A DNA stretch of 64,000 nt from a virus (lineage: Duplodnaviria; Caudoviricetes), in IMG/VR virus record IMGVR_UViG_3300022173_000041, positions 1-64,000 of that record; one strand, given 5' to 3'. The position numbers were made by a program, and so were the translations under genes. Below, in pieces: positions 5,298 through 64,000 of this stretch; position 1 is the stretch's first letter, and each line of letters starts with the position of its first letter. The notes below the pieces were generated by a model. It made no database searches. It saw nothing but the letters and a program-made list of their open reading frames with translations, and had not been told where the DNA came from.

Positions 5298-5308
5298 GGA
5301 GTAGCACA

Positions 5309-6223: not shown

Positions 6224-6249
6224 GCGGGAAAGGAAAAGGAGAACCAGAT

Positions 6250-7221: not shown

Positions 7222-7232
7222 GGAGATAGATA

Positions 7233-7421
7233 ATGGCTAAGGGTAAGAAGAGTGGCGGCAAGGTCGCTGGTGGTATCGGCAAAGCGGTTGCTTATGACGG
7301 CGCTTCCAGCAAGACCATGAAGGCAGCCAAGAGCAAGAGCTACGCCAGCGGCGGCAAGGTCGGCGGCGGCGGTAAATCTCCGTTCTCTGCTGCTCATATC
7401 AAGACCAACGGTGACGCTTAA
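7233..7421 (+). CDS. Small basic K/G-rich protein
   Basis: RBS AGGAG; YASGGKV motif. Confidence 0.6.
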   Translation: MAKGKKSGGKVAGGIGKAVAYDGASSKTMKAAKSKSYASGGKVGGGGKSPFSAAHIKTNGDA

Positions 7422-7440
7422 TACCTAGCAGGCAGGGTCC

Positions 7441-7779
7441 ATGCCGATTACCACGCTATCGTCTGTCGGCGTTTCAGGGGCTCTCAATCTTGATTGGATG
7501 GGGTCCAAGCCCACTACCTGTGTAGTGACGCTTGGCTCCACCACCATGACTTCAGACTTTACCGTCCAGTACACACTGGATGATCTTCAGACTTCTACAT
7601 CTCCGGTCTGGTTTGGCGTCAGCTCAGCCATTGGTTCTTCTGTAACCCACTATTCGGCGTCCAATGCTGATGGTGTATCTCTTACTTTCCTCAACCCTAT
7701 TGCTGGTCTCAGACTGTCGAGTACCGCTATCAGCTCCAGTTCTTTGACCATGAAAGTGTTGCAGGGTCCGGGGGGCTAG
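7441..7779 (+). CDS. Small Ser/Thr-rich structural protein
   Basis: In-operon ORF; roughly one third Ser+Thr by hand count. Confidence 0.65.
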   Translation: MPITTLSSVGVSGALNLDWMGSKPTTCVVTLGSTTMTSDFTVQYTLDDLQTSTSPVWFGVSSAIGSSVTHYSASNADGVSLTFLNPIAGLRLSSTAISSSSLTMKVLQGPGG

Positions 7780-7785
7780 TTTCCC

Positions 7786-8160
7786 GTGATTAACTACAAC
7801 ACCGCAACAGTCAATCAGCGCCTAGATGTAGTGGTCAATAACATTGACGCTGGGTCTTCCAATGGCGTCCTTAGGCTGCTCGACGCCAGCGCTCAGACAG
7901 TAGCGACTATCGCTCTGGTGAAACCATGCGGGACAGTATCCAACAAGGTACTGACCTTCTCTGGCCTTCCACTGCCGTGCCCACTTACTTTGGTAAGCGC
8001 ACAAATTGTGGCTGCTGATATTGAAGACAGTACGGGTTTAGTGGTAGCTTCCGGCCTAACGGTAGGGCAATCAACTGCCTCAGATATCGTTATGGGAAAT
8101 ACGATTGTCAGCTCAGGTCAGATCATTACATTGACCTACGCGACTATCACGGGAGTTTAA
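7786..8160 (+). CDS. Hypothetical structural protein
   Basis: GTG start, in-operon, beta-rich. Confidence 0.6.
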   Translation: MINYNTATVNQRLDVVVNNIDAGSSNGVLRLLDASAQTVATIALVKPCGTVSNKVLTFSGLPLPCPLTLVSAQIVAADIEDSTGLVVASGLTVGQSTASDIVMGNTIVSSGQIITLTYATITGV

Positions 8161-8161
8161 C

Positions 8162-9010
8162 TTGGATAACGAAGCAAAGCTTACCCCGCGCAATACCGAT
8201 CTACTTCTCAAGAATGGGAAGGCGCCTCCGTTCAAGATGCTGCCTGAGATGCCTACTACCCCCCCCACCCCCCCTACACAAAAGGCCGAACCCAATCTGG
8301 GTACGCCGCTATCAGCAATTAAGCCGCTGAAGATCGCCATGATTGGCACCGCGCCATCTTCGCGCGATCTGGCGCCGTTTAATGATCCTTCTTGGACCAT
8401 TTGGGCATGTTCTCCGGGTAATATGAACGTTTTGCCGCGAGTTGATGCTTGGTTTGAAGTTCACAGCAACCTGCTTTGGCCTGAGTGTATTTCCTACGGT
8501 GCGCCGTATGTTGAGTGGCTCAAGAAGCAGACGTTCCCGATCTACATGCAGGACAAGAACCTTGTCCCGTCAGCCATCCCGCTTCCGATCAAGGAGCTGA
8601 CCGACGAGTTCGGCAAGTATTTCTTCACCTCCAGCTTCGCCTACATGATTGCTATGGCGATCAAAGCTGGCGCCTCTGAGATCGCCTTGTTCGGGATCGA
8701 TATGGCTTCGAAGGATGAGTACATTCTTCAGCGACCGGGTGGTCACTACTTCATGCAGGAAGCTGCCAAGCGCGGCATTCTTGTAAACATTCCCTTCGAA
8801 AGTGATCTTGCTCAGCCTCCTGCACTTTACGGGTATTCTGACAGCACGCCGTTTGGTCGCAAGATGCACATTCGCGAGCAAGAGATCAGAGGCCGCGTTA
8901 ACGGAATGAAAGCTGAGCGCGACAAACTAAACCACAGCATCACCTATCTTGAAGGTGCTTTGGAGGATATGGACTATATCAAGGGGATATGGGCTGGAAT
9001 TCAGACCTGA
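8162..9010 (+). CDS. Sialyltransferase-fold protein (CstII/GT42- or Maf/DUF115-like glycosyltransferase)
   Basis: KIAMIGTAPSS...WTIWAC and FTSSFAYMIAMAIKAGASEIALFGIDM parallel the CstII motifs KKVIIAGNGPS and TSGVYMCAVAIALGYKEIYLSGIDF (recalled, not aligned by software). Confidence 0.6.
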   Translation: MDNEAKLTPRNTDLLLKNGKAPPFKMLPEMPTTPPTPPTQKAEPNLGTPLSAIKPLKIAMIGTAPSSRDLAPFNDPSWTIWACSPGNMNVLPRVDAWFEVHSNLLWPECISYGAPYVEWLKKQTFPIYMQDKNLVPSAIPLPIKELTDEFGKYFFTSSFAYMIAMAIKAGASEIALFGIDMASKDEYILQRPGGHYFMQEAAKRGILVNIPFESDLAQPPALYGYSDSTPFGRKMHIREQEIRGRVNGMKAERDKLNHSITYLEGALEDMDYIKGIWAGIQT

Positions 9011-9048
9011 CTTGGGCTAATGTCCGGTCATGATTATGGAGATGGGTA

Positions 9049-9531
9049 ATGGCTAAATACGCAATCACTAACGGCAGCACTTCTGGTGCTGGTACCCAGC
9101 AATCCATGGGCACGGCTTACGCTGGATCGATGATCGGTCTGACCGGCGCCAACTCGGCTCCTAGGCGCATCAAGGTTTACGATGTGCTGATTGGCACCAA
9201 CGGCACCCCGGCTGATAACTTCGTTGAATGGGATATCAGCCGTATCACCACCAACTCCACCGCTACTTCCGCCACCCCCCAGCCGCTGGATTTGGCAGAC
9301 GCCACTTCTCTCACAACCACCACTGTCAACAGCTCCACCTTCGGCACCATCACGGCTAACTCCAACGTATTCTACGTTGGCGTCAACCAACGTGCTTCGT
9401 ATCGTTGGGTAGCTGCCCCGGGTGGCGAGCTGGTATCACCGGCCACTTCATCTGCTGGCTTCCAGCTTCGTGCAAGGTCAGGTGGTTATACCGGTACCGC
9501 AACTGGAACGCTGCACTTTGAGGAACAATAA
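9049..9531 (+). CDS. Ser/Thr-rich structural protein
   Basis: RBS GGAG; about a quarter Ser+Thr. Confidence 0.7.
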   Translation: MAKYAITNGSTSGAGTQQSMGTAYAGSMIGLTGANSAPRRIKVYDVLIGTNGTPADNFVEWDISRITTNSTATSATPQPLDLADATSLTTTTVNSSTFGTITANSNVFYVGVNQRASYRWVAAPGGELVSPATSSAGFQLRARSGGYTGTATGTLHFEEQ

Positions 9532-9534
9532 GTT

Positions 9535-9792
9535 GTGCGGAATGCTGGCGGCTATGCTTATACATTCGATGTAGGCGGCATTCGTCAGGAAGCCGACACT
9601 TTCACTTGCTTCCATTGCAATACGATTGTCGTCGTAAAGCCAAAGTGCGATCCTTGCGATCTTGGTGGACTATGCCGCATCTGCGATAAGATGATATGCC
9701 CAAAGTGCGTTGACTTGGGCTCCTGCACGCCATTTGAAAAGAAGCTTGAGCGCCAAGAGGCCATCTACCACAATAGAAGGTCATATGAGTAA
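9535..9792 (+). CDS. Cys-rich zinc-finger protein
   Basis: CFHC...CDPC...CRIC...CPKC. Confidence 0.65.
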
Positions 9793-10976
9793 TGGCCCTT
9801 CTATATAATCTCGTCAGGGTAAGAACGGCTACCACTGGTACCGGCACTGTAACGCTTGGCGCCGCAATCCCCGGATATCTAACGTTCGCTCTTGGTGGCG
9901 TCACTGACGGTCAGACCGTTGACTACGCCATCAACGATGGACCCAACAGTGAAATAGGCACAGGCGTTTATACGTCTGCTGGCACCACTCTTTCCCGATC
10001 AGTTACCAGCTCTACCAACGGCGGTTCGGCCATATCGCTGTCTGGATCGGCGCAGGTTTTCATTACACCTCGCGCTCAGACGCTTAACGACGCCTCAATC
10101 ATCACGACTGGCACAATGGCCACTGCCAGACTTGGTTCTGGCTCAGCCGTCTCCACGACTGCTCTGTTTGGTGATCAGACGTACAAGACGCTTGCTACTA
10201 TTGCTCAGTCGGGTAGCGCCAGCGATCTAAGCACAGGTACTGTCCCGACAGCCAGACTAGGCTCGGGCTCTCCCGGCTCAACGACTGCTTTATTCGGAGA
10301 CCAGACTTATAAGACTGTCACGCAAACTGGACGGCTCATCAGTCGCCAGACATTCTTCGCGACCAACTCAGCAATCACCCCGCCAGCAGGCGCAACGTCT
10401 GCCATTGTCCGAATGCAGGCGGCAGGCGGTGGCTCTGGTGGCACCTCGGCTGGTATCTGCGCTCCGGGCACTGGAGGCCCGGGTGGCGGCGGGGCGTACC
10501 TTGAAGCATACGTCGCGACACTATCTGGCAACTTTAACTACACGCTAGGCGCCGCTGGAGCTGCGGGTACGGCTGGTAATAATGCGGGTGGCGCTGGTAC
10601 AGCCAGTACGCTGGCAATGACTGGTATTACTACTCTCTCTGCTCCCGGTGGACTTGGTGGCGGTGGATGCTCCTCCACTGGTGGCCAAGCAAACATTGGC
10701 ACTCCCGGTGGTGTCACTGCTGCTCCGACAATAAACAATACAGCCTCAGATTGGGGTACGAAAGGAGGTGGCGGATTAGTCGGAGTTCTCGGGACTTCTG
10801 GTGTTTTTTCCGGCACCGGAGCTTCATTCCGCAGTGCAGGCATAACGCCGTTAGGAGCGTCAGCAACGGCGTCGTTATACGGCGGCGGCGGTCCATCAAA
10901 AGCGACTATCACAAACAGCACACAAGTCGGCATTATCGGAGCAGTAGGTATGCTCGAAATAGAATGGTACTCATGA
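9792..10976 (+). CDS. Tail fibre/spike-like protein with Gly-rich C-terminal domain
   Basis: Conserved N-terminal anchor ([18 protein letters not shown]...EIGTG), duplicated TARLGSG...[12 protein letters not shown] segment, Gly-rich C-terminus ending LEIEWYS. Confidence 0.75.
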
Positions 10977-29474: not shown

Positions 29475-29853
29475 GAAAAGCCTTGGCTACTTGCTCTGCG
29501 TAATCCAGCTTTCTATCAAGTTCTTTGACGTGGCGCTCATGGCCAATCAAAGCGTCATCCTTGGTGGAGTATCTTTCGCACTCCATCTCGGCGCCAATAG
29601 AAGCAACAGAGTTACCGCCATCGCCCGGCTTTTCCCAGCGCTGATCATCGAACACCATTGTTTCAAACAGAACCGGTGGACCACCACAGCCAAATCTTTG
29701 GTCTATGCCCAAAAATACAGTTGATACGAGATACCCGGCACGCTCGTACTTAGCTATGAACCTGTTTTTCTTCTCATAGAACTCAGCCCAAACAAGCGGA
29801 TCACTAACCTCAACCGGGATACCATCCTTATCCAGTATCCAGTACATGCTCAT
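29467..29853 (-). CDS. Conserved phage hypothetical protein
   Basis: VSTVFLGIDQRFG...PVLFETMVF...RYST motif. Confidence 0.7.
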   Translation of the reverse strand: MSMYWILDKDGIPVEVSDPLVWAEFYEKKNRFIAKYERAGYLVSTVFLGIDQRFGCGGPPVLFETMVFDDQRWEKPGDGGNSVASIGAEMECERYSTKDDALIGHERHVKELDRKLDYAEQVAKAFLK

Positions 29854-30914
29854 CCCCTTGTTCCAAATCCAATTGTTCTGAGTTGTATATTCTTGCCCTG
29901 ATTGAACAGCTCGGCAACGGTGTATTCGCGCTTCTCAATAGGGATCGGCAGCTTCGCTACCTTGGCAGCCGCTTGTGCCTCGGTCAGGTTCAATGGTCTG
30001 GTGTGCATGACGCCAAAGCACCTACCCGGTCGGATCAACGCATGATCCACGCGACCAAAGTCAGTGATATTGGTTGTGAACACCATCTTCTTGTTCGGTA
30101 GTTTAATCAGGCCGTCAGACACGTTCAAGAAGCGAGACATCAGCTTGTTCCCGTCCTTCTCTCGGTCAGACAAGATGGTGTCAGCGTCTTCGATGATCAT
30201 GATATCGCTATCGTCATCGAACAAGAAGTCCTGAAAGATGCTGTCCTTCTGCATCAGGCTCTCGTCATAGATCACATGCGCGGTCAGCTTATGGTCGCTG
30301 ATCAGATGCCGCAGCAACGTGGTCTTCCCAGTGCCGGGGGGGCCAGCAAGCATCAGCACAGCCTCGTCTGAGGCCATGAAGTCTGCCAGATACTTCCTTG
30401 GGTCCCCAAGGTCGGGGTAATACTCAGGATGGATATCTGTACGAAGCGGCGGCAGGTAGACATCCTTGCTGTCCAGCCCGTGCTTGCCAACGAACCACCA
30501 CTTCACAGAGCCAATCTTCTGGGCTTCGAAGTCCGCGCTGATCGCCTTCTTGAGGAACTCAGCAACGTCAGGCCGGGAGACAATATCGATCTTGATTTCC
30601 CAGACTTCCTTATGCTCCTCGGCATTTAGGAACATAATCACAGGGGCGCCAGTGATCTCACCACCGGTAAAGACCATCTCATATAGGTCAACGCGATGGC
30701 TAACGATGGATACGGCGCGCGGAGACCCAGCCAAGTGGGATTTAGTCCTAGAGATAATATCAGCGATGGACATGGTTTTAGCGATAACGACTTCAATCTT
30801 AGCGTTGAAGAGATCGCCCGGGGTTTCAGCAATGAACTGTGTAGTAAGCTGATGGTTAAGACTGGTATCGACCGCAGACATATGCTGCATGTCGAAGAAA
30901 TTCTTGCCTGACAT
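29850..30914 (-). CDS. AAA+ ATPase (classical clade, BCS1-like core)
   Basis: Walker A GPPGTGKT, Walker B IIEDAD, FLNVSDG, TTN, ALIRPGRC; start placed after the genome-typical RBS AAGAGGGAAA. Confidence 0.85.
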   Translation of the reverse strand: MSGKNFFDMQHMSAVDTSLNHQLTTQFIAETPGDLFNAKIEVVIAKTMSIADIISRTKSHLAGSPRAVSIVSHRVDLYEMVFTGGEITGAPVIMFLNAEEHKEVWEIKIDIVSRPDVAEFLKKAISADFEAQKIGSVKWWFVGKHGLDSKDVYLPPLRTDIHPEYYPDLGDPRKYLADFMASDEAVLMLAGPPGTGKTTLLRHLISDHKLTAHVIYDESLMQKDSIFQDFLFDDDSDIMIIEDADTILSDREKDGNKLMSRFLNVSDGLIKLPNKKMVFTTNITDFGRVDHALIRPGRCFGVMHTRPLNLTEAQAAAKVAKLPIPIEKREYTVAELFNQGKNIQLRTIGFGTRG

Positions 30915-31012
30915 TTTCCCTCTTACGTATTTTAGAGAATGCCAACGATCCCTGTAACGCCCCTTAGGACGTATCGTGGCTGGATCAATATTGTACTCTT
31001 CCCCAAGAAGCT

Positions 31013-31369
31013 CTATTGCCTCTTCTTGACTTCCCCGTTCATCATCTTCTTCCATCCTGAAGCCTTTGATCCCGGGAACGGTTTCTTTGCTTTAGCGATA
31101 CCGTATGTCTTTTTTAAGACCCGATCAGCTTTCTGCATTCGAGGGTTATCTTCGGTGAAGGTCTTCTTGTTGTGGCAAATCTTTATACAAAGCACCTTGC
31201 AGTTCTCAAGCGTGTTATCCCCGCCAAGACCGTCAGGTGTGTCGTGATCGTAATGGATGTTCCCAGCGGTAAGCTCTATCCCGCAACCTTCACAGTGCGG
31301 GATACCCTTCTCGTTGCAGCAGCGCTTGAAGGCTAAGAACTTAACCCTTTTGGGGAATTCTTTCCGCAT
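31013..31369 (-). CDS. HNH endonuclease
   Basis: CEGCG...YDHD...GGDNTLENCKVLCIKICHNKKT. Confidence 0.85.
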   Translation of the reverse strand: MRKEFPKRVKFLAFKRCCNEKGIPHCEGCGIELTAGNIHYDHDTPDGLGGDNTLENCKVLCIKICHNKKTFTEDNPRMQKADRVLKKTYGIAKAKKPFPGSKASGWKKMMNGEVKKRQ

Positions 31370-32650: not shown

Positions 32651-32938
32651 TCAAAACGGAATGTCGTCGTCCATATCCGCGTTGGGCTTTGGTTGAGGTA
32701 CATTTGGGGTCGGACGCTTGAATTTGCTAGCCCCACCCCCACCACCACCGCCATCTATTTTCTCTTGGCCGCGCTTATCCTCTGAGATTTGTAGATATTG
32801 GTTTCCTGCGGCAGAAGTCTTCTCCCAGATCGAGATAGCGGTCTTGACGCCATCGATCTCAATCACGCCAGAATAGACAGGCCCATTCTGAGCTGTCTTT
32901 GCGAATAGCGCTCCGCTTACGCGATAGTTACCCGGCAT
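32651..32938 (-). CDS. Single-stranded DNA-binding protein-like
   Basis: OB-like short core plus acidic DMDDDIPF tail, next to ERF. Confidence 0.7.
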   Translation of the reverse strand: MPGNYRVSGALFAKTAQNGPVYSGVIEIDGVKTAISIWEKTSAAGNQYLQISEDKRGQEKIDGGGGGGGASKFKRPTPNVPQPKPNADMDDDIPF

Positions 32939-33776
32939 TTACATTCTCCAGTTTCGGCAACTCGTTGATGGCCTTTGTCATTGAGGCATTGAGATTGGAC
33001 GAAATCTTCGGCGCCGCCTTTTGCAACTCATCAAGAGCTAGCGCGTTCTTTCGAACCCACTCCCGCCCGATAGCATCGTTCTTGCTCGCCTTTACATAGG
33101 CGATGAGGATTTTACCGAAATCCACCCAGTCGCTACCGGTACCGTCTGCCGTCAGGTTCACAGGAACCTGATATGGAGCAATATCCTTAACCTGCGCCGA
33201 TGGCTGGACATTGGTGGTGATGACATCGGGCTTTGGAGATACTGGCTTGCGGTCAACTGCCTGTTCCACCGCATTCCCGTCAGCGACATTGGCGTCATCG
33301 TCTTCCTCGGCTGCGATACCCAAGAGGCTCGTCAGCGAGTACCGCCGCATGAAGGTCAGCGCAGACCCGAATTGCTGGTTGCTACCGCCTTCCACGATCA
33401 GCGGCACCTGACAGGCCAGCCACTGCCCTGAGGAGTGCATCAGGCGCGTATCCAGAATGTACGTCCCCTGATCGTCCTTCATGATCTGAGTGAACCAGAG
33501 GCCATTGCTGGTAAGCGGACCACGGATGATATCGATGATGTGATCCAGCGTAGCGTATTTGAAGGAATACGAAGTCTTGCTTTGGTCGCGCGGCGATACC
33601 TTGACGGTACGATTGCGCTCTGGCGCCTTGATCTCTGACTGGGCCATAGCGAGTGCGGAGACCAACTCAGCGATCTCTTCGCTTCGAGTTGTATCAGTCC
33701 AGCGGGGTGATACGGATTGATCCATTTTTGGCTCGCTTGATTTGTAAGAAGTGTCCGTAGATGCGTCTTGCGTCAT
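32928..33776 (-). CDS. erf: ERF-family ssDNA annealing protein
   Basis: KYATLDHII...GSALTFMRRYSLTSLLGIAAEEDDDAN; start may be at 33725. Confidence 0.85.
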   Translation of the reverse strand: MTQDASTDTSYKSSEPKMDQSVSPRWTDTTRSEEIAELVSALAMAQSEIKAPERNRTVKVSPRDQSKTSYSFKYATLDHIIDIIRGPLTSNGLWFTQIMKDDQGTYILDTRLMHSSGQWLACQVPLIVEGGSNQQFGSALTFMRRYSLTSLLGIAAEEDDDANVADGNAVEQAVDRKPVSPKPDVITTNVQPSAQVKDIAPYQVPVNLTADGTGSDWVDFGKILIAYVKASKNDAIGREWVRKNALALDELQKAAPKISSNLNASMTKAINELPKLENVNAG

Positions 33777-34494
33777 GTGGCATCATTTCCTTTAGGGCAG
33801 CCTGTGCTTCATCGAAGTCCTTGGCTCCCTTCTTGTTGGCAATCCATTGTGACGCCATTGCGGCGTAATGGTTGTTTCCTGAGAAGTTTACCTCAATCAT
33901 TTTGTCATGAGGTAGGTACACTGGCGCCGGTTCTATCACAACGGGCTCAGTCATATCCCAGACGTGGGTCATGAACCTGTTGGCTCTGGCCATCAGCTCG
34001 TCTGCGTAGTCTCTGTTGTAGTTGATGTATTCGATGTATGGTTCGGCGGCGCCAGCAATAATGGAGATGGCGCACTGCTTTGTTGCGGTGCATTCCATTT
34101 GCCAATGCATCTGCGGCATATAGCGCTGAATGATTGTATCAGTCTTCTCCCATCCACCAACGTGCTTAGTCTCCACAGGACACGCCAGCACATTATCGAA
34201 GCCATCAAGAGTAGCAGCGGCCCACCCATAATCAGGATGAACCACAACTGCCCCTCGGTTAACGAGTATGTTACCTGTCTTCTTCTCGTACCAGTCAAGG
34301 TTTAGTTGCTCCGTGGTTTCGCCAAGACGCACAGGCCAATTGTCTGAGAAGTCTGGCTCGACATAATCAGGACTACCAATCATCTCGCGCCAGAGATTGA
34401 GAATGCGATCCTTGTCGCCACTGACCAATGAGCCAATGGCGCTTGCGGTTAGCTTCCCTTCTCTGGCGGTCTTTTGTTCAGGAGTAAGAGCCAC
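33694..34494 (-). CDS. YqaJ/lambda-exonuclease-like recombinase nuclease
   Basis: REGKLTASAI...AATLDG...VETKH...YMPQMHWQM. Confidence 0.85.
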   Translation of the reverse strand: MALTPEQKTAREGKLTASAIGSLVSGDKDRILNLWREMIGSPDYVEPDFSDNWPVRLGETTEQLNLDWYEKKTGNILVNRGAVVVHPDYGWAAATLDGFDNVLACPVETKHVGGWEKTDTIIQRYMPQMHWQMECTATKQCAISIIAGAAEPYIEYINYNRDYADELMARANRFMTHVWDMTEPVVIEPAPVYLPHDKMIEVNFSGNNHYAAMASQWIANKKGAKDFDEAQAALKEMMPHDARRIYGHFLQIKRAKNGSIRITPLD

Positions 34495-38308: not shown

Positions 38309-38396
38309 GGAAGGGTGGCAGAGCGGCTTATCGCAGCGGTCCTGAAAACCGAAGTGGGGCAACCCACCGGGGGTTCAAATCCCTCCCCTTCCGCCA
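38309..38396 (+). tRNA. tRNA-Ser(UGA), CCA encoded
   Basis: GGAAGGG/CCCTTCC acceptor stem, anticodon loop CCTGAAA, long variable arm GTGGGGCAACCCAC, T-loop GGTTCAAATCC, 3' GCCA. Confidence 0.9.
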
Positions 38397-39957: not shown

Positions 39958-40384
39958 GAAGGTCTTGGCAGAGGTTTGCGGCTACCACGGCATCGTAACC
40001 AAGCAGAAGTTCCTCCCGACAGTCTCTGAGCTGAAAGCCGCCTTGGACGAAGCAGCTAGACCGGAAGTCGAAGAGGCTGCCAGACTAAAGGTCCGGGTTG
40101 AGGCAGCTCAAATCAGAGCAGAGGTTAACCGGATTGCAACTGAGAGGGAAACCAGACCGACTTACGAAGAGCTGATTGCCACTTTGCCGCCGTCCCTGCG
40201 ATTGAATAAAAACAATCACGTAGTTCCTATGACGCGGGATGAATTCTTCACAAAATTCCCGCATGTGACATCAGAACAATTAGACGCTGTACCTGACGCA
40301 AAGGACTTTGACTGGAAGACATACCGATCAACATTGCCGACATTGCCAGCGCCAGAAGAAAAAAATCCATTCGAGGACTTGTAA
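39770..40384 (+). CDS. Replication accessory protein (helicase loader-like position)
   Basis: KFLPTVSELK motif; follows the initiator gene. Confidence 0.55.
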   Translation: MPSRTEPSSQALTTLQQSATLEAKRKSCAHWASQLQKMFPQTESPITPEFMLAMAATMESYSEKVLAEVCGYHGIVTKQKFLPTVSELKAALDEAARPEVEEAARLKVRVEAAQIRAEVNRIATERETRPTYEELIATLPPSLRLNKNNHVVPMTRDEFFTKFPHVTSEQLDAVPDAKDFDWKTYRSTLPTLPAPEEKNPFEDL

Positions 40385-40427
40385 CATTCCACCCCAGACA
40401 CAATCTGTGTCTGACTGGAAATGTTAC
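40381..40427. promoter_or_regulatory. Nested palindrome containing an operator-like site
   Basis: GTAACATTCC..CAGACACAATCTGTGTCTG..GGAAATGTTAC. Confidence 0.55.
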
Positions 40428-40439
40428 AAAAGAGGGAAA

Positions 40440-42260
40440 ATGACAACCGCAAAGAATACAATTGTCAGCATTGAGCTGGAAACTTCTCTTCACAATGAGA
40501 AGCTCTTCACCAAAGATGGTGTAAACAAGCTTCTCGTTGAGAAGGATATCCCGGGATCGTTCGAATACTTTCGTCATGGTGGCGTCGAGGGTATCGACAT
40601 CTCTCGCGGCGATGCTCACTTTCGGAATGCACTTTCGAGGGTAATGCAAGAATGTATTGGCCACGCCAAGAATTCTGCACTGGGTCATCGCTACCCTCTG
40701 GACCTTCTTGCCAGAAACAAGAACCGCTGGGTTTCTTCATTGGCTCAGTATGGTTATGGCTACATCGAAGGTGGCTATGATCATGATGGTGATCCGGTCG
40801 ATGAGAACAAGGCTCCTCAGATTGAAGTCATCCTGAAGCTTCTGGAAACTCGCCTAAAGGAAATCGAAAGCGCGGTCGCAAGACAGGTTGCCAACGGGCA
40901 AATCTCTTTTGACGATCTTCCGTTCTTCTATTCTCGCGGCAAGGAAGTGTATATCTCTGACGATGATGGAGAAGTCATCGCCGGTACGGTAGACGCTGCA
41001 AGCATCCAGAAGACTTGGTTCGGCTCTCAGTATCTGGCTGTTTCTCTGAATATCATCCATGGCGTCAATGGAGCGTTGGCGCCGGGCAAGTATCAGGCAA
41101 CACTGCCTGAATACAACGGAACCATCAGCCTCAATGAACTTGCTATCAAGCCTATGTCAGATGAGCTTCGCTTGAGGCTTATTGAGCGTGGCAAGTTGGC
41201 AAAGCGTTGTGCCATTGGCCCGACTTATCTGTCTTACTCTGGACATCTCTCTCGCTCTACGTGGTGGAGTAATGAGACATTCAGGGCAGACGGTCGCGTC
41301 ATGGTCGATGTCGGCTCATTCAAGCGAGTGGACAACGATCAGTTCTCCAAGGAACAGCGCGCGACTGGTATCGCTGGAATGCGAGACAGTGACGGGAATG
41401 TTGGAGCTTCTCTCAACTTCAATCCTTCCGATGCTGATCTGTGGAGGTGCTATCCGTATGTTTACGGGTTTAGCTTCCGCGCCAAGCGCTGGGGCCGGTT
41501 GGCTCTAAGTGGCTTGACAGATATCGCATGGCGATCCGACAGCTTCGACAAACTGGTTCTGCCTGAAGACGAGAAGGCCATGGTCAGGGCTCTGGTCGAG
41601 CATAACGATGGCTCGTTCGAAGACTTGATCGATGGTAAGGGTGGCGGCTGCATCTTCTTGCTGCACGGTCCTCCCGGTCAGGGCAAGACGCTTACTGCTG
41701 AGACAATTGCAGAGCTTCTCAAGAAGCCCCTGTATGCGATCTCGGTGGGTGAGCTTGGGGTTACGCCAGACCAACTGGAAGAGCGCCTGAGAGCGATCTT
41801 GGACGTGGCTACAGTCTGGGACGCTGTGATCCTGCTGGATGAGGCAGACATCTATCTGGAAGCCAGAGACGAGAAAGACATCACGCGAAATGCCATGGTT
41901 GGCGTATTCCTGCGGTTGCTTGAATACCATCACGGCGTTCTGTTCCTGACCACGAACCGGGTGAAGAACATCGATACGGCATTCTATTCCCGTATCTCGG
42001 TTGCGCTTCACTTCGCTCATGGTGACAACAGCAAGCGTGAGAAAATCTGGAACAACCTTCTGGATAGTGCTGGTATTCAGGGGATCAACGCGAAAGAGCT
42101 TTCGTTGATCGACATCAACGGGCGCCAGATCAAGAACGCTATCCGATTGAGCCAGACACTGGCTAAGTCTGAAAGCAAAAAGGTTGACATCAAGACCTTG
42201 GAAAAGGTAATAGAATTGATGACGGCTTTCGACAGAGAGCGGTCACAGGGCAGCGTATAA
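40440..42260 (+). CDS. Large AAA+ ATPase resembling the fungal-expanded GKGxG..LLHGPPG family
   Basis: GKGGGCIFLLHGPPGQGKTLTAE; LLDEADIYLE; FLRLLEY..GVLFLTTNR..ID.AFYSRI. Confidence 0.85.
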   Translation: MTTAKNTIVSIELETSLHNEKLFTKDGVNKLLVEKDIPGSFEYFRHGGVEGIDISRGDAHFRNALSRVMQECIGHAKNSALGHRYPLDLLARNKNRWVSSLAQYGYGYIEGGYDHDGDPVDENKAPQIEVILKLLETRLKEIESAVARQVANGQISFDDLPFFYSRGKEVYISDDDGEVIAGTVDAASIQKTWFGSQYLAVSLNIIHGVNGALAPGKYQATLPEYNGTISLNELAIKPMSDELRLRLIERGKLAKRCAIGPTYLSYSGHLSRSTWWSNETFRADGRVMVDVGSFKRVDNDQFSKEQRATGIAGMRDSDGNVGASLNFNPSDADLWRCYPYVYGFSFRAKRWGRLALSGLTDIAWRSDSFDKLVLPEDEKAMVRALVEHNDGSFEDLIDGKGGGCIFLLHGPPGQGKTLTAETIAELLKKPLYAISVGELGVTPDQLEERLRAILDVATVWDAVILLDEADIYLEARDEKDITRNAMVGVFLRLLEYHHGVLFLTTNRVKNIDTAFYSRISVALHFAHGDNSKREKIWNNLLDSAGIQGINAKELSLIDINGRQIKNAIRLSQTLAKSESKKVDIKTLEKVIELMTAFDRERSQGSV

Positions 42261-44914: not shown

Positions 44915-46192
44915 TTACTTGTAGGGAACAGTCCTGCCATATGGCGCCTTAGCGCCACTGCCAGCCCAGTCCACCCACACCACCGGAAAGTCAGGCTGTG
45001 GCCCAAAGCTTGAGGTATACATATCGGTCAGGAAGATACAGCCGATAACGTCTTCCATCTTGCCGATTTCTGTCATGGCGGAATTGAAATCGGTTCCACC
45101 ACCACCACCAGCATTCCAGCCAATGATGTCCTCTTCTGACTTCGCTTCCAGAGTGTTCTGGATTTGTGTATCGACCGAAATCAGAGTGACGTGCGATACC
45201 AAGTCCTGATTGAGAAGGCTTGCAGCCTCTTCGCACATTTCTTGGATCATCTTCTGGCTAACTGAGCCAGACACGTCCAGACACATCACAAGCTTGTATA
45301 CGTTATCGTTGCCATAACCGGGCATGTATTCGTCATTGCCCAGTCGGCGTCGATTAGGACGGGTCCACGTTCGCGTTGCCTTAGACTTGGCATCGCGAGA
45401 CATATCGCGGATAAGGTCCTTCCAGTCGATCTTCTCCTTGGGGAAAAGATCACCGATCAGACGCTGGAGATTGCCCGGCAATGTACCGGGAGGAGACTTC
45501 TCCAGAGCGCTTGCGACAGTTCGCTTCCACTGCCGGTCGGCAGCTTCGCGTTCTTCGGGCGTGGTTTCGAACATGGTGCCGGGAGCTTCCCCATCACCTT
45601 CTTCGTCGCCATTGCCCTCGCCTTCACCCTCACCATCCTGATCTTCTTCTTCGTCACCTTCACCATCCTGAGGCTGGCCTTTCCCCTTTCCTTTCTGGGG
45701 TTTGCCTTTGCCTTTCTCGGACTTTCCTTTGCCGCCGTCCTTGCCTTCCTTGTCTTCCTTTTTCTGCTGCTTTTCCTCCTGCTGTTGCAGGATTTCATAG
45801 ACAGCTTCGGCAGAAAGTTCGGCAAGCTTGTTATCGCGCAATGCATCACGTGGCATTGGGAAATAGTCTTCGACCACCTTGTTGACAGGGAAGTCGCAGG
45901 CTTCATTCCACATCTTATTGTCGCGATATCGGCGCCGGGCAGGATGCATCATAGCGCAATGCAGGACGGTATGCAGAAGCACACCTTCCATGTATTTATC
46001 GTTCGCGGCATCGTCCACATATGCGGGATTGAAGAAGATATCGACCCCATCGGACCATACCGTCTTGTGAGATTTACTCTCAACAAGATTTGCGCCAAAC
46101 AGAATGGATGCAAAGAACGGATTGCGCTTTGCTACACGTTCCCGTGCAGTAAGCATTCGTCGCATTGCAGTTGGTTTCGTTATTCCAAACAT
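44915..46192 (-). CDS. DUF2201-like peptidase-fold plus vWA protein
   Basis: PFFASILF...LLHTVLHCAMMH...WNEACDFPVN; acidic linker; MIDAS LDVSGSV; GGGGTDF. Confidence 0.8.
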   Translation of the reverse strand: MFGITKPTAMRRMLTARERVAKRNPFFASILFGANLVESKSHKTVWSDGVDIFFNPAYVDDAANDKYMEGVLLHTVLHCAMMHPARRRYRDNKMWNEACDFPVNKVVEDYFPMPRDALRDNKLAELSAEAVYEILQQQEEKQQKKEDKEGKDGGKGKSEKGKGKPQKGKGKGQPQDGEGDEEEDQDGEGEGEGNGDEEGDGEAPGTMFETTPEEREAADRQWKRTVASALEKSPPGTLPGNLQRLIGDLFPKEKIDWKDLIRDMSRDAKSKATRTWTRPNRRRLGNDEYMPGYGNDNVYKLVMCLDVSGSVSQKMIQEMCEEAASLLNQDLVSHVTLISVDTQIQNTLEAKSEEDIIGWNAGGGGGTDFNSAMTEIGKMEDVIGCIFLTDMYTSSFGPQPDFPVVWVDWAGSGAKAPYGRTVPYK

Positions 46193-46210
46193 GAATTCTC
46201 CCTCTTGTTG

Positions 46211-46272
46211 TGAAGCAGATGTATTGGCGCTTCGTGCTGGGGGCGTGGGAAATCCGCCCCCAGTGTCGAAAC
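46211..46272 (-). repeat. Intergenic hairpin element, copy 3
   Basis: GTTTCG-ACA-stem-CA-CGAAGC..GCTTCA. Confidence 0.7.
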
Positions 46273-46286
46273 GTCAAGAGGTACCG

Positions 46287-47333
46287 TCAGACACCCTTGG
46301 ACGCCTGCCCTTCGATCAGCAAAGCGGCGAGCGCTTCGTTGGTCTTCAGGGACTTGTCGCGACCCATGGCATCGGTAACGCACATGGAGGCAACATCCGG
46401 TGACATACGTCCCAGATACTTTGCGAACGCGGCGGCATTCTTGGCCGTCAGGTTGCGCGCGATGGTACCAGCCATCAGATACTGGAAGTGAGCGTCACCG
46501 GGCATTTTGGCCTTCATCGGGTCAGCCAAGATGTCTGCGATCTTCGGCAGACCAGCCGCAAGCCGGTCCAAGAAAGCCGCAAACTGCCTTGAGAAGCCCT
46601 CACCCAGAATAGCCAGCGCGGCATTCTCCAAGACACCCTTCAGTGCCTTCGGGTCCATACCAGACGCCTCGGTGTCGCGCAGAACCTTGTTGAAGTTCTC
46701 CAGCGAGCGGGGCGTAGGAAAGGACGGATGATTGACATCGACCTTGTGGATCAGTTCAGGACGCAACTGGAGAAACGCAATCAGGCGCTTGTCCCAGCCC
46801 CACAGCTTGGTCTTTTCAGTGAAGCCGATTTCATCGACCTCGACCGTAATGTGGGCCATGCGGTTTTCCAGAGGCTTCAACATCTTGTTGTCGCCGCCTC
46901 CATCCTCACGGGTGTTTGAGCCCAGAATGATCCGGTTTTTCTTCGGAAGCGGATACCCACCGCACGAACGGTCCAGAACCAACTGATAAGACATCTGCTG
47001 GAGCTGTACGTTCGCATGACCGAATTCGTCAAAGAACATGACGTGCATTTCGTCATCGTCCTTCGGAACGAACGCGGGCCGGGTCCAATGGGTAGACATT
47101 TCCTCGCGGTTGATCAGCGGCATACCGGTGCCGTCCACAATATCCTTTGTAGAAAGCCGGATGTCGTGCAACTGAGATTTGGCGCCAAAGTCCGTTCGGA
47201 TTTTGGTCATGATCTCAGAGTTGATCACCGCTGACTTGCCGACGCCGGTCGGTCCCTTGATCATGACCGGAATATCCGCATGGATCAGGGGATAGACAAC
47301 GTTAGCAAGTTGGGTAATTTTGCACTTCAACAT
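46287..47333 (-). CDS. MoxR-like AAA+ ATPase
   Basis: GPTGVGKS; FFDEF; LGSNTRED; PLENRM; PTPRS. Confidence 0.85.
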   Translation of the reverse strand: MLKCKITQLANVVYPLIHADIPVMIKGPTGVGKSAVINSEIMTKIRTDFGAKSQLHDIRLSTKDIVDGTGMPLINREEMSTHWTRPAFVPKDDDEMHVMFFDEFGHANVQLQQMSYQLVLDRSCGGYPLPKKNRIILGSNTREDGGGDNKMLKPLENRMAHITVEVDEIGFTEKTKLWGWDKRLIAFLQLRPELIHKVDVNHPSFPTPRSLENFNKVLRDTEASGMDPKALKGVLENAALAILGEGFSRQFAAFLDRLAAGLPKIADILADPMKAKMPGDAHFQYLMAGTIARNLTAKNAAAFAKYLGRMSPDVASMCVTDAMGRDKSLKTNEALAALLIEGQASKGV

Positions 47334-60768: not shown

Positions 60769-61113
60769 ATGAGCAACAACGCCTATACCGGGTACACCGC
60801 AACTCTTCAAAACCTTCAGGCTGTTTATCCCTACAATGGGTCCGTCGCCACCGCTGGGTATCAGCAGGCATATGTGACTGGAACTACCGCCGCTGGAACC
60901 GTAGGAGGGCCGTTCCCTGCCACATGGAGCGGCTGGGTTACGGCGCCTAATACCAACGCGGTACTGGGCCAAGCCGGAAGTTTCCCCGGGGCATACATTC
61001 TGCCAGCAGAGCCTATCTACACCATGAACCCGCCCTCCCGCGAGGACTTCACGGAAGACGAGATTAACCGGGCGCTGGAAATCATTGACGAGCTGGAAGT
61101 CCGGTATGCCTAA
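60769..61113 (+). CDS. Low-complexity (T/G/A/Y) protein with tag subtype 2
   Basis: RBS GGAGG; ends DFTEDEINRALEIIDELEVRYA. Confidence 0.65.
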   Translation: MSNNAYTGYTATLQNLQAVYPYNGSVATAGYQQAYVTGTTAAGTVGGPFPATWSGWVTAPNTNAVLGQAGSFPGAYILPAEPIYTMNPPSREDFTEDEINRALEIIDELEVRYA

Positions 61114-61516
61114 AGGCGTCCCCGGTCCTGTCTACACCAACGAGCATCAGGCGCTTCACCAGCGCCTGCGTTGGCTCCGACAGAACATGCAGCCCTACAT
61201 GACCCAAGAACAGCTCGCCACAGCCTCTGGGGTGAGCCTCTCATTCATTAAATCGTATGAGGTTGGCGGTGTCGCCCATATGAGTACCGACACCATCAGG
61301 AAGCTCGCCCACGGCCTTGGCTGCAAGATGACTATTCGCCTGATGCGAGTAAGTGATCGAGAGATAATCGACTGCCTGACGGAAGGTCCACCTTTGCCCG
61401 CCGTCCCAAAACGTCCGGATAAAATTTCGGTGGAAGCCCGAACGCGGGCCTTATCACGCGAACGTTCTCCTTGGTCAGAAGCTCGCCAGCAGCGATTGGC
61501 GCGACGACGTAAATAG
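61106..61516 (+). CDS. XRE-family HTH regulator
   Basis: LRWLRQ...MTQEQLATASGVSLSFIKSYEVG...TIRKLAHGLG. Confidence 0.8.
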   Translation: MPKGVPGPVYTNEHQALHQRLRWLRQNMQPYMTQEQLATASGVSLSFIKSYEVGGVAHMSTDTIRKLAHGLGCKMTIRLMRVSDREIIDCLTEGPPLPAVPKRPDKISVEARTRALSRERSPWSEARQQRLARRRK

Positions 61517-62384
61517 AACGCCGGAACTTCAAATTAGGCTCTTGGACTTTGGAGAAAGATGGTTGGGTAGCTTGCCAAGCTGCTTTGCAGGAAGCTGCTA
61601 GTTCAGCAAATTCCAAGGGCTCAAGGCTAAAAGCACTATCAGGACCCCCATCAGACCGACGTAGCGTAAGATGCTTTTCAATGATAGTGGCTCCAAACGC
61701 CACGGCAGCAACGCTAACCCCCACACCAAGAGTATGATCGCTAAGGCCGACCACATGCCTACCTCCCATCAGTTCGCTGAGTGGACCCAAGGCCGGTAAG
61801 TTGGACTGGTCTGCTGGCGCCGGATAGGCGCTGACGCAATGCAACAGAGCGATATCCTCGTTGCCTGCGCGCCCCCTAACAGTCCTTACCGCCGTGCAAA
61901 TCTCCGTCGTGTTTGCCATCCCGGTGGATATGATGACGGGACGCTTCGTTTCGGCAATTCGTGCGAGTAGAGGAACATCAGTAATTTCAAAGCTCGCCAC
62001 CTTGTAAGCGTTAGGAGAAAGATGCTCCAAGAGGCTGACCGAGCTTTCATCGAATACGGATGCGAATATTTCCAGCCCGCGAACAGTACGAGCATAATCA
62101 AATACTCGCTCCATCCACTCAAAAGGAGTATGCGCTTCCGCATAGAGATCATAAAGCGTTCGCCCAGCCCACGGTCCTTCCTTGATGAGAAAGTCATCGC
62201 TATCGCTCTTCATGGTCATGGTATCAGGCGTGTAGCACTGAAGTTTTACAGCGTCGGCGCCAGCGAACTTGGCTTCGTCAATCAGCCTGAAGACATTGTT
62301 GATGTCGCCAAGATGATTACCGCTCAGCTCCGCTATCAGGTACGGCGGCTGACTTATCGAGATTTCGCGGTTTCCAATCTTCAT
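61332..62384 (-). CDS. pseI: Pseudaminic acid synthase (NeuB family)
   Basis: IAELSGNH.G; KLQCYTPDTMT; LLHCVSAYPAP; GLSDHT; IEKH; GGPDSAFSLEP; SAF domain RRSIYVV...IRP.FGLPPK. Confidence 0.9.
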   Translation of the reverse strand: MKIGNREISISQPPYLIAELSGNHLGDINNVFRLIDEAKFAGADAVKLQCYTPDTMTMKSDSDDFLIKEGPWAGRTLYDLYAEAHTPFEWMERVFDYARTVRGLEIFASVFDESSVSLLEHLSPNAYKVASFEITDVPLLARIAETKRPVIISTGMANTTEICTAVRTVRGRAGNEDIALLHCVSAYPAPADQSNLPALGPLSELMGGRHVVGLSDHTLGVGVSVAAVAFGATIIEKHLTLRRSDGGPDSAFSLEPLEFAELAASCKAAWQATQPSFSKVQEPNLKFRRSIYVVAPIAAGELLTKENVRVIRPAFGLPPKFYPDVLGRRAKVDLPSGSRLSLDHLLASGE

Positions 62385-62562
62385 CTGCCATAGCCCTCAT
62401 CAGTCTGGACACTTCAAGGTCCATTATTAAAATCTTGCCCAGCGCCTCTTTGGTGGCCTTGGGATTAGCCTTCATGGCTATCTTCAGGATATCCATCCAG
62501 TTCTGGTTATTGTGAGCGCGAACGCGACCTATCTGGTCAAGAATTTGATCGTCTGTTGTCAT
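62317..62562 (-). CDS. Small helical protein of the type found in nonulosonate clusters
   Basis: DQILDQIGRVRAHNNQNWMDILKIAMK; ATGA overlap with the aminotransferase stop. Confidence 0.55.
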   Translation of the reverse strand: MTTDDQILDQIGRVRAHNNQNWMDILKIAMKANPKATKEALGKILIMDLEVSRLMRAMADEDWKPRNLDKSAAVPDSGAER

Positions 62563-63677
62563 CTGAAGATTTTCCTTAATCTTGCTATGTGTTCTGGCTT
62601 GATGTCGTATGAGCAAACCTCAATCATAATAAGTCTATTCAGCGACTTGTATGCTTCACCCTCAATTAGCTCATACATTCTGTCTTGAGTTAACCAAGTA
62701 TTTGAAAGTGGCTTATCCAGAAGATTGCCATCGTATCCAACCTCAACAGGTATGGTGAGGTTCTGATTTCTGAACATCTGGACCATTGATGTCGCTGAGT
62801 AGTCTATATTAACAATAAGAGGAAGAGCGTAGTAGGAATGCTCGCAGTCAGTCCTGACTTCCATCTTTTTGAAATAGGTTCCCTCAACAGCTTCTATAAT
62901 ACCGCGAGCCACTTCCTGCCTGCCAGCAACAATCTTCGGAAGCTTCTTGAGCTGCTCGCGAGCGATGGCTGCGGTAATCTCGGTCATTCTTAGATTAAGC
63001 CCCGGCGCTGCCTGCCCACGGCACTCACCATGGTTAATGGCGCCTGCCAGCTTTACATAAAGCCCTTCATCATTGTCGTTAACAACGCAGACGCCACCTT
63101 CACCGGTCTGGATGTGCTTGTGGACATTAAGGGAGAACACCCCGATATGACCGATGGTCCCGGTGTATTTACCGTTCTCCTTAGCCATGATGGCTTGAGC
63201 GTTGTCTTCGATCAGGTAGATGCCGCGACTATCGCAGATGCTGCGTAGCTGATGCAGCTTGGCTGGATGCCCGAACATATTGGTAGCAATGACCGCCTTG
63301 GTGCTTTCTGTGATCTGATTAGCCACGTCAGAAGGAGATAGACAGAAAGTATCAGGCTCAATGTCTGCCAGAATGATGGTGGCGCCAAGAACGGCAGGAG
63401 CGCATGCAGTGGCCGACATGGTGAAGTAAGGGACAATCACTTCGTCCCCGGGACCAACGCCAATAGCCATACAGGCAGCCAGAAGACCTGAGGTAGCCGA
63501 GTTGCATGGTATGGCGTTGTCTACCTTGAAAAACTTCTCCCACTCAGTCTGCAAACCGCGAACCTCAGGGCCAGCACCCATCTTGCTTGCTACATATCCA
63601 GATAGGTTGCCGCTGCGGATAACCCGCAAAACAGCCGCCTCTTCTTCTTTCCCGATAGTGTTGAATTTACCGATCAT
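62559..63677 (-). CDS. DegT/DnrJ/EryC1/StrS sugar aminotransferase (PseC-like role)
   Basis: NSATSGL; GPGDEVIVP..TMSATA; IEDNAQA; FSLNVHKHIQTGEGG (PLP lysine); start trimmed to 63677. Confidence 0.9.
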   Translation of the reverse strand: MIGKFNTIGKEEEAAVLRVIRSGNLSGYVASKMGAGPEVRGLQTEWEKFFKVDNAIPCNSATSGLLAACMAIGVGPGDEVIVPYFTMSATACAPAVLGATIILADIEPDTFCLSPSDVANQITESTKAVIATNMFGHPAKLHQLRSICDSRGIYLIEDNAQAIMAKENGKYTGTIGHIGVFSLNVHKHIQTGEGGVCVVNDNDEGLYVKLAGAINHGECRGQAAPGLNLRMTEITAAIAREQLKKLPKIVAGRQEVARGIIEAVEGTYFKKMEVRTDCEHSYYALPLIVNIDYSATSMVQMFRNQNLTIPVEVGYDGNLLDKPLSNTWLTQDRMYELIEGEAYKSLNRLIMIEVCSYDIKPEHIARLRKIFR

Positions 63678-64000
63678 AGGTAGCTCTTCAGTTCTTCGAC
63701 CGTCAGGAATTTGCTGTTGTTGATGCTGGTATACTCTTGTGGATTTGTTATGTTGGACACGCCATCGCTGTTGATTATATACCGGTCCCATGCTTCCAGC
63801 GCTCCTCTAGCTTCTTCCTCCGTCATGAGGATTTCGTGAAGTTTCTCGCCCGGCCTGATGCCAACGATGGTCTGCGGCAGTGTCGGCGCCATAGCTCTGG
63901 CTAGATCGACTACGCGCATGGATGGAAGCTTCGGGATGAAAATCTCCCTTCCCTTCATCATTCCTAGCGAGGAAAGAACAAGATTTACAGCTTCGTCCAT
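63674..64000 (-). CDS. pseB: UDP-GlcNAc 4,6-dehydratase (PseB/FlaA1-like), C-terminal part only
   Basis: MKGREIFIPKLPSMRVVDLARAMAP...VGIRPGEKLHEILM...YTSINNSKFLTVEEL. Confidence 0.85.
   Translation of the reverse strand: MDEAVNLVLSSLGMMKGREIFIPKLPSMRVVDLARAMAPTLPQTIVGIRPGEKLHEILMTEEEARGALEAWDRYIINSDGVSNITNPQEYTSINNSKFLTVEELKSYL

Follow-up and report, generated by a model that had tools for sequence, protein, structure and literature searches.

Why would a bacteriophage carry the genes for a bacterial surface sugar next to its packaging genes? The question is raised by the IMG/VR record IMGVR_UViG_3300022173_000041, whose first 64,000 nt, out of 73,677 nt, are the stretch of DNA analysed here (the window). 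At the end of the window, the minus strand carries part of an operon for a pseudaminic acid (Pse), one of the nonulosonic acids. These bacterial surface sugars affect motility, immune recognition and phage adsorption, and phages are known to recognise them, to degrade them or, as prophages, to re-tailor them. The original prediction, made from the window alone, described a pseudaminic-acid-type operon in a phage. It linked the operon to an open reading frame (ORF) at position 8162 labelled CstII/Maf-like. The present analysis shows that the operon is part of the phage genome. Our proposal is that the phage has genes for most of a CMP-pseudaminic-acid-type pathway (CMP, cytidine monophosphate) and for a transferase of its own that O-glycosylates the virion, a reading that we regard as an even bet.

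The record closes on itself. Its final 127 nt are an exact copy of its initial 127 nt, which gives a closed genome of 73,550 bp; IMG/VR classes it under direct terminal repeats and its CheckV completeness is 100%. The remainder of the record was read as positions 60001-73677 (L001; genome numbering is L001 + 60000). As predicted, the operon continues past the edge of the window and was traced up to ~69.9 kb. Further on comes the large terminase gene TerL (70817-72427, plus strand, divergent from the operon; TIGR01630, E 3e-15), then a portal gene that wraps round to window position 1540. Looking beyond 64 kb for terL and circularity, as had been suggested, therefore revealed both. On its other side the operon is bounded by a helix-turn-helix (HTH)-type gene (61085-61516, plus strand) convergent with pseI. 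Phage genes are thus found on both flanks, and the operon adjoins the packaging genes.

The original prediction had also considered that the operon might be host DNA flanking a prophage, with an att-type junction near 61.3-61.5 kb. Such a junction is not present, because the HTH protein is conserved there over its full length, at 57-59% identity and in the same place, in two related contigs (L005 and L021). No tyrosine (PF00589) or serine (PF00239) recombinase and no lysogeny gene was found in the genome. The guanine-cytosine content of the operon is 0.503, for 0.518 +/- 0.011 across genome windows, and its tetranucleotide distance ranks 43 among 74 windows, which is typical of the genome. That the operon is flanking host DNA or the product of a chimeric assembly is refuted by a contig that closes on itself, an operon composed like the rest of the genome, a PseI no more than 55% identical to any bacterial one found, the lack of a detected recombinase, and a phage-flanked arrangement kept in independent assemblies of other samples. 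Nothing was found in favour of this explanation, save that the genome has a recombination module (an ERF single-strand annealing protein and a YqaJ exonuclease, 32928-34494) of a type that occurs in many temperate phages. The phage is an uncultured, lytic-looking one with a complete genome. Its closest terminases among isolated phages are those of Paracoccus, Roseobacter, Rhizobium and Erythrobacter phages. The closest bacterial PseI and fusion genes (see below) are alphaproteobacterial, and an alphaproteobacterium is the likely host.

Within the window, the four predicted genes are in place, all on the minus strand. PseB, an inverting UDP-N-acetylglucosamine 4,6-dehydratase of 305 aa, spans 63674-64591; its start is the ATG at 64591, and the window holds its final 108 codons (63674-64000). 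It is followed by a DegT/DnrJ/EryC1 aminotransferase in the position of PseC (62559-63677, 372 aa; PF01041, E 2e-65), by a conserved small ORF (62317-62562, 81 aa) and, as the last gene of the operon, by the pseudaminic acid synthase PseI (61332-62384, 350 aa), which has a NeuB domain (Pfam E 7e-76) and an SAF domain. Beyond the window, still on the minus strand, lies a 687-aa fusion of a CTP_transf_3 domain with a class-III aminotransferase (64588-66651; Pfam E 3.8e-29 and 3.6e-44). The CTP_transf_3 domain scores 102.5 bits, and the aminotransferase half resembles glutamate-1-semialdehyde aminomutase and aminoglycoside C-6' aminotransferases. Upstream of the fusion are a GFO/IDH/MocA oxidoreductase (66787-67704), two S-adenosylmethionine methyltransferases (67686-68324 and 68324-69133), a GNAT acetyltransferase of the Acetyltransf_3 type (69130-69693) and a 72-aa ORF (69690-69908). 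Chance is excluded by E-values of 1e-65 to 1e-125.

Pathway calls were made by NCBIfam equivalog models with curated cut-offs, and only PseB and PseI score over them. PseB reaches 417.4 bits on TIGR03589 (cut-off 407.75). PseI reaches 409.6 bits on TIGR03586 (cut-off 340.25) and stays below the cut-off of the NeuB_NnaB model (253 bits for 399.65). With these two equivalogs in a closed phage genome, a pseudaminic-acid-type operon in a phage was confirmed.

The predicted coupling of the genes by ATGA overlaps of start and stop codons holds for PseB/DegT (63674-63677) and DegT/small ORF (62559-62562), and a further one joins the fusion to PseB outside the window. It does not hold for the small ORF and pseI, whose junction is an overlap of 68 nt here and ATGA in L005 and L021. 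Alignment with these two contigs shows a gap of ~35 nt at this junction (62317-62400). With its ATGA stop gone, the small ORF extends 68 nt into pseI; the ends of the two proteins nevertheless remain similar to their counterparts in the relatives. The 81-aa product has no Pfam or NCBIfam match; homologues in the same position are 66-69% identical to it in L021 and L005, and L008 has one at 43%. At the other end of pseI, the HTH gene overlaps it tail to tail over ~180 nt (61332-61516), and the same overlap is seen in L005 and L021. Either these are real antiparallel genes or the HTH gene is an antisense frame held open by pseI.

How widely is this arrangement distributed? Relatives were gathered by an alignment-based scan of IMG/VR; a scan with a single protein gave only two remote loci. 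NeuB-family genes were found at 72 viral loci. PseI homologues at 57-74% identity sit on contigs of 61-75 kb, and the identity of the phage PseI to any bacterial homologue found is at most 55%. Nearly all sequenced relatives carry such an operon, and in most of ~19 related contigs its core is syntenic. In five of them (L005, L021, L008, L006 and L013) it is syntenic gene for gene and adjoins TerL, and the synteny from TerL to the HTH gene is repeated in L005, L021 and L008. The order GNAT-methyltransferase-GFO-fusion-PseB-DegT-PseI, beside a divergent TerL, is found in most of 14 mapped relatives, with extra ORFs, occasional changes of order and a second methyltransferase labelled in three only. 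The fusion is present in 14/14 further relatives, and all 17 long relatives searched have it. Among 50,697 phage records, no megablast match was obtained with the 13.7-kb genome end, and a tblastn search with PseI gave only three weak NeuB-type matches, at less than 31% identity.

A FastTree phylogeny of 134 PseI sequences, which is approximate and gives local supports only, places the phage PseI in an all-viral group (support 93). This group falls outside a clade of 70 rows, 68 of which are bacterial. The phylogeny that had been called for thus groups the phage enzyme with viral and not with bacterial sequences.

The bacterial comparison set comprised 80 PseI loci, the best at 50-55% identity and mostly from Alphaproteobacteria. 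Bacterial Pse clusters contain the same full-length fusion (33-53% identity across residues ~16-687), and PseG is over its cut-off in four of the five bacterial genomes that carry the fusion. In Pseudomonas abyssi (L183) the gene order is PseB-PseC-GNAT-fusion-PseG-PseI, and Marinobacter persicus (L201) matches it as far as the fusion. Because it stands in the PseF position of these clusters (GNAT-fusion-PseG), the fusion appears to be an established, uncharacterised variant of the CMP-activation step. These two clusters and those of a Hyphomicrobiaceae metagenome-assembled genome (L211) and Pseudovibrio (L176) share PseB, PseI, GNAT and the fusion with the phage; L211 also has a 212-aa methyltransferase, like the phage. 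Unlike the phage, the bacterial fusion clusters have a canonical PseC beside PseB, as well as PseG, which in L183 lies between the fusion and PseI. The phage operon, for its part, adds the GFO oxidoreductase and the second methyltransferase. Neither a gene of the ORF 8162 type nor the 81-aa ORF was found within 10 kb in the bacterial fusion clusters, or within 10 kb of the 80 bacterial PseI genes.

What would the phage do with an activated sugar? ORF 8162 (8162-9010, plus strand) encodes a 282-aa protein with no Pfam family at E <= 0.1 and no PHROG match. An AlphaFold2 model was built from 27 sequences (mean predicted local distance difference test score, pLDDT, 79.9). In it, a catalytic core is accompanied by a disordered N-terminus and a single long helix at the C-terminus. 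Foldseek gave 16 matches at E <= 0.001 (4e-6 to 3e-4), all with GT42 sialyltransferases, including CstII, Cst-I and the Pasteurella enzyme. With VIA-align, the model superimposes on Maf (5mu5) with a Z score of 11.4 over 153 residues (root-mean-square deviation, rmsd, 2.7) and on CstII with a Z score of ~10 and 21-23% identity. The core in common with Maf and with CstII and Cst-I (1ro7, 2p2v) is a nucleotide-sugar-binding, Rossmann-like one of 146-157 residues (rmsd 2.7-3.4). The family profile compared with PDB sequences gave a best E of 0.36, which is non-significant; the top match is a sialyltransferase, aligned across a T-S-x-x-x-M...G-x-D motif. This motif and an association with a CMP-nonulosonate pathway are common to ORF 8162 and the Maf/GT42 enzymes. 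ORF 8162 differs from them in its size of 282 aa, in having none of the Maf flanking domains, in its essentially viral family and in its place in a phage late operon. Invariant residues of the family include K57, H101, D180, E186, Q190-R191 and E213-S214-D215.

We found 867 homologues of ORF 8162, all unannotated; 307 IMG/VR contigs carry a member of the family. The nearest ESM-Atlas clusters are 95-100% viral, and the family looks phage-specific from its distribution. Long records with a member of the family have a NeuB-family gene in 15 of 17 cases, and in 14 of 15 if only records at least 90% complete are counted. Outside the lineage, ~22 viral contigs carry an ORF 8162-type gene 2-10 kb from PseI. 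The seven that were mapped (L023, L026, L028, L032, L035, L037 and L039) show a second phage context, in which the gene immediately precedes an ORF of TerL size and pse genes are found at a distance of 2-3 kb. In L028, which was checked with Pfam, the TerL-sized ORF is a Terminase_6N terminase and is followed by a T7-like portal gene (PF12236). A small terminase had been considered for the TerL-adjacent homologues and was rejected on the GT42/Maf fold matches. Because the family is linked to NeuB-family/PseI genes in two phage lineages, we consider ORF 8162 a candidate glycosyltransferase of the CMP-nonulosonate type. Fold matches and linkage to PseI both agree with the CstII/Maf-like label that the gene had been given.

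The transferase gene lies in a head/late block on the plus strand (4680-10976). This block contains the major head protein (5309-6223; phrog_371, E 4e-12) and six Ser/Thr-rich candidate acceptors. Four are encoded upstream of the transferase gene (4680-5297, 6187-7221, 7441-7779 and 7786-8160) and two downstream (9049-9531 and 9792-10976). Serine and threonine make up 22-33% of the four upstream proteins and 26% of the two downstream ones, compared with ~11% of most proteins of the genome. The 160-, 124- and 205-aa neighbours of the transferase are kept in 59-65 of 80 relatives' loci. Most neighbours have no Pfam or PHROG match. For the 344-aa Ser/Thr-rich neighbour, a poor model (mean pLDDT 52) gave no fold match at E <= 0.001.

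Together, these data lead us to propose the following scheme, in which the PseB and PseI steps are read from sequence and the remaining ones inferred. PseB makes the UDP-4-keto-6-deoxy sugar. The ATGA-coupled DegT enzyme may then aminate C4 (PseC role) and GNAT may acylate the product (PseH role). Hydrolysis of the UDP-sugar (PseG step) is not encoded and would have to be provided by a Pse-making host or by an unrecognised enzyme. PseI condenses a 2,4-diamino-2,4,6-trideoxy-L-altrose derivative with phosphoenolpyruvate to give a Pse-type nonulosonate, which the N-terminal CTP_transf_3 domain of the fusion could convert to the CMP-sugar (PseF role). The GFO oxidoreductase and the fused class-III aminotransferase might swap one hydroxyl for an amine, and one or two methyltransferases might methylate the product. 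The outcome would be a tailored Pse derivative and not plain Pse5Ac7Ac. Finally, the 282-aa Maf/CstII-fold protein would use the CMP-sugar, most likely to O-glycosylate the surrounding Ser/Thr-rich virion proteins during assembly, giving the particle a sialic-acid-like coat. Virion O-glycosylation is the most economical choice, given the position of the gene among Ser/Thr-rich proteins of the late head block and the absence of lysogeny genes. The target is probably the phage particle, or else the host surface. A broader claim is that both a widespread lineage of 71-77-kb phages and at least one T7-like lineage coat their virions with an aminated, methylated pseudaminic acid by means of a phage-specific minimal Maf/CstII-fold family. 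We would put this claim somewhat short of even.

Several observations weigh against this scheme. On the biosynthetic side, the DegT enzyme scores 153.9 bits on the PseC model TIGR03588, below the cut-off of 423.5. Its closest solved structure is 7b0m ('sugar aminotransferase', 139 bits), Helicobacter pylori PseC scores 66 bits, and perosamine synthetases, Kdo8N transaminase and WbpE also outscore the latter. In bacteria with two DegT enzymes (L193, L173, L175, L189 and L209), the second one is the closer relative: the phage enzyme shows 40-48% identity to the second DegT of some bacterial Pse loci and 25-31% to their PseC. The original prediction had listed PseB, PseC and PseI as the enzymes present; the first and the last stand, and the DegT enzyme, as judged by these comparisons, is not a PseC orthologue. 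PseC activity may still be present through this enzyme in the PseC position. The PseH model TIGR03585 finds no match in the genome, though GNAT is present, and the PseF model TIGR03584 gives 31.6 bits on the CTP_transf_3 domain (cut-off 205.7). With the PseG model TIGR03590, nothing was detected in the genome at E <= 1 or in the 17 long relatives at E <= 0.01. Of the PseG, PseH and PseF genes that might have lain beyond 64 kb, PseH and PseF are represented only by GNAT and the CTP_transf_3 domain, which fail the equivalog models, and PseG is not found at all. As far as it can be recognised, the pathway would not be self-sufficient. What the phage seems to have is the two enzymes diagnostic of Pse, tailoring enzymes and, for three steps, plausible substitutes that are not orthologous. 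Our best inference for the product is a modified Pse.

The other observations on this side concern the lineage, the transferase and its acceptors. One relative with a complete genome of 75,040 nt (G015; L239/L240) is missing the NeuB-family gene. It retains the transferase, GNAT, methyltransferase, GFO, fusion, PseB and DegT genes, and PseI may be dispensable or host-supplied, given this genome. Co-occurrence of the genes inside one clade reflects shared ancestry and is not independent evidence. ORF 8162 scores 12.3 bits on the Pfam MptE-like model PF01973, which it fails (cut-off 34.6). Thiamin pyrophosphokinase (TPK; Z 10.6) and hydroxymethyldihydropterin pyrophosphokinase (HPPK; Z 9.7), of the same superfold, align with it almost as well as the glycosyltransferases do. 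Finally, many phage surface proteins are rich in Ser and Thr.

Two minor observations belong here. In the operon of G015, a formyltransferase and an HNH endonuclease have been gained between PseB and DegT. A calcineurin-like metallophosphatase gene (70049-70759; L001:10049-10759) between the operon and TerL was tried as a substitute for PseG and was rejected, as it is not conserved at that place (not found in L005 and L021).

The nearest competitor of virion glycosylation keeps the sugar and the transferase and changes the acceptor. Flagellin, lipopolysaccharide or lipooligosaccharide, capsule or pili of the host would be pseudaminylated or re-tailored during infection, with the effect of masking receptors, excluding competitor phages or keeping progeny off debris. 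Maf enzymes modify flagellin and CstII modifies lipooligosaccharide, and both are fold matches of ORF 8162. The missing PseG implies a host already making Pse, the prophage enzymes EpaA and EpaB re-tailor the Pse of a host capsule (PMC12053666), and in the second lineage the gene precedes TerL and is not among head genes. Against a host acceptor, the gene lies inside the structural block in its own lineage. The 282-aa protein also lacks the flanking domains of the 632-residue Maf chain, and with no integrase or lysogeny gene found, a lytic cycle would leave little time for surface turnover. Modification of host flagellin, lipopolysaccharide or capsule is a serious rival, if a less likely one.

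A plain auxiliary-metabolic role is improbable. The operon would boost or divert the Pse supply of the host, and ORF 8162 would be an unrelated MptE/TPK-fold protein. A viral pseI is indeed known from the Pacific Ocean Virome, with 'motility augmentation' as its proposed role (PMC6359870); PseG has to come from the host, and the TPK and HPPK folds come close to the glycosyltransferases in score. This reading has to face GT42 enzymes at the top of the Foldseek ranking and 7-9 coupled genes, tailoring enzymes included, kept across ~19 genomes. Moreover, ORF 8162 relatives accompany NeuB-family genes in two phage lineages and were not seen beside bacterial PseI. It is less probable still that the sugar goes to some phage target other than protein, for example hypermodified DNA bases, or to a small molecule. 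Hypermodification of DNA with diverse glycans by phage glycosyltransferases has been described (Pyle 2024, as cited in PMC12619734). Here DNA glycosylation is unlikely because no thymidylate-synthase-type hydroxymethylase was found in the genome, and no DNA polymerase or nucleotide-modification gene was found among the scanned ORFs. To our knowledge, no DNA glycosyltransferase has the Maf/GT42 fold.

A precedent comes from Acinetobacter baumannii prophages, in which EpaA, a CTP_transf_3 domain fused to a reductase, epimerises Pse at C8 together with EpaB (PMC12053666). As in the present phage, Pse tailoring is phage-borne, with a CTP_transf_3 domain joined to a tailoring domain and a separate oxidoreductase partner. 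EpaA is a precedent for fused Pse tailoring and as such supports our reading of the fusion. EpaA/EpaB differ in being two genes of integrated prophages that act on host-made Pse and the host capsule, without synthase, dehydratase or transferase; the tailoring domain of EpaA is an aldo-keto reductase, where that of the phage fusion is an aminotransferase (PMC12053666). With lysogenic-conversion glycan modules the phage shares neither an integrase (no PF00589 or PF00239) nor an integrated state, its genome being a closed one that carries terminal repeats. Mycobacteriophages are an established case of phage enzymes glycosylating the virion (Freeman et al. 2023, PMC10527164, as reported in PMC12619734). 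There, as here, a glycosyltransferase is encoded with structural genes; the acceptors are capsid and tail proteins. These phages use host nucleotide sugars and ordinary glycosyltransferases, and are not known to have a nonulosonate or a biosynthetic operon. The glycan on the virion is established there and proposed here. In the Pacific Ocean Virome, pseI was named a viral auxiliary gene (Hurwitz, Brum & Sullivan 2015, via PMC6359870). It was presented as a single protein cluster that aids host motility, with no operon, transferase, phage lineage or virion role put forward. Viral pseI, prophage re-tailoring of Pse and virion glycosylation in mycobacteriophages are thus already known. What appears new is the pathway together with a phage-specific transferase: in a non-exhaustive literature search, no account emerged of a Pse pathway in a phage coupled to a phage-specific Maf/CstII-fold transferase.

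Over a long evolutionary span, a lytic-looking lineage has retained a near-whole pathway together with a transferase of its own, and more than 800 'hypothetical' phage proteins gain an annotation. If the sugar is on the particle, virion glycosylation would reach beyond mycobacteriophages to Gram-negative, probably alphaproteobacterial, phages and to sialic-acid-like sugars, and a sialic-acid-like glycan would be documented on bacteriophage particles for the first time. Such a coat would matter for the stability and adhesion of the particle, for immune recognition and for decoy or mimicry effects. Variable tailoring genes (methyltransferases, formyltransferase, extra ORFs) would diversify it. 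A compact 282-aa family of CMP-nonulosonate transferases and the Pse-tailoring enzymes would then also be available for glyco-engineering.

Some further features of the genome were noted. The phage has exactly two tRNA genes: tRNA-Thr(TGT), which heads the sugar operon (69994-70069, minus strand; L001:9994-10069), and tRNA-Ser(TGA) at 38309-38396. Thr and Ser are the residues that the structural proteins have in excess; the codons ACA and TCA show no enrichment in the Ser/Thr-rich proteins, which gives no codon-use link to the phage tRNAs. In the late block, the protein encoded at 9792-10976 is glycine-rich and tail-fibre-like. An 85-aa cysteine-rich ORF (9535-9792), with several C-x-x-C pairs and a zinc-ribbon-like appearance, lies between it and the gene of the 160-aa protein. 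Elsewhere, a 425-aa DUF2201 metallopeptidase/VWA-like protein is encoded beside a 348-aa AAA-type ATPase (44915-47333), resembling a MoxR/VWA-like pair, and two more AAA proteins are encoded at 29850-31055 and 40308-42260.

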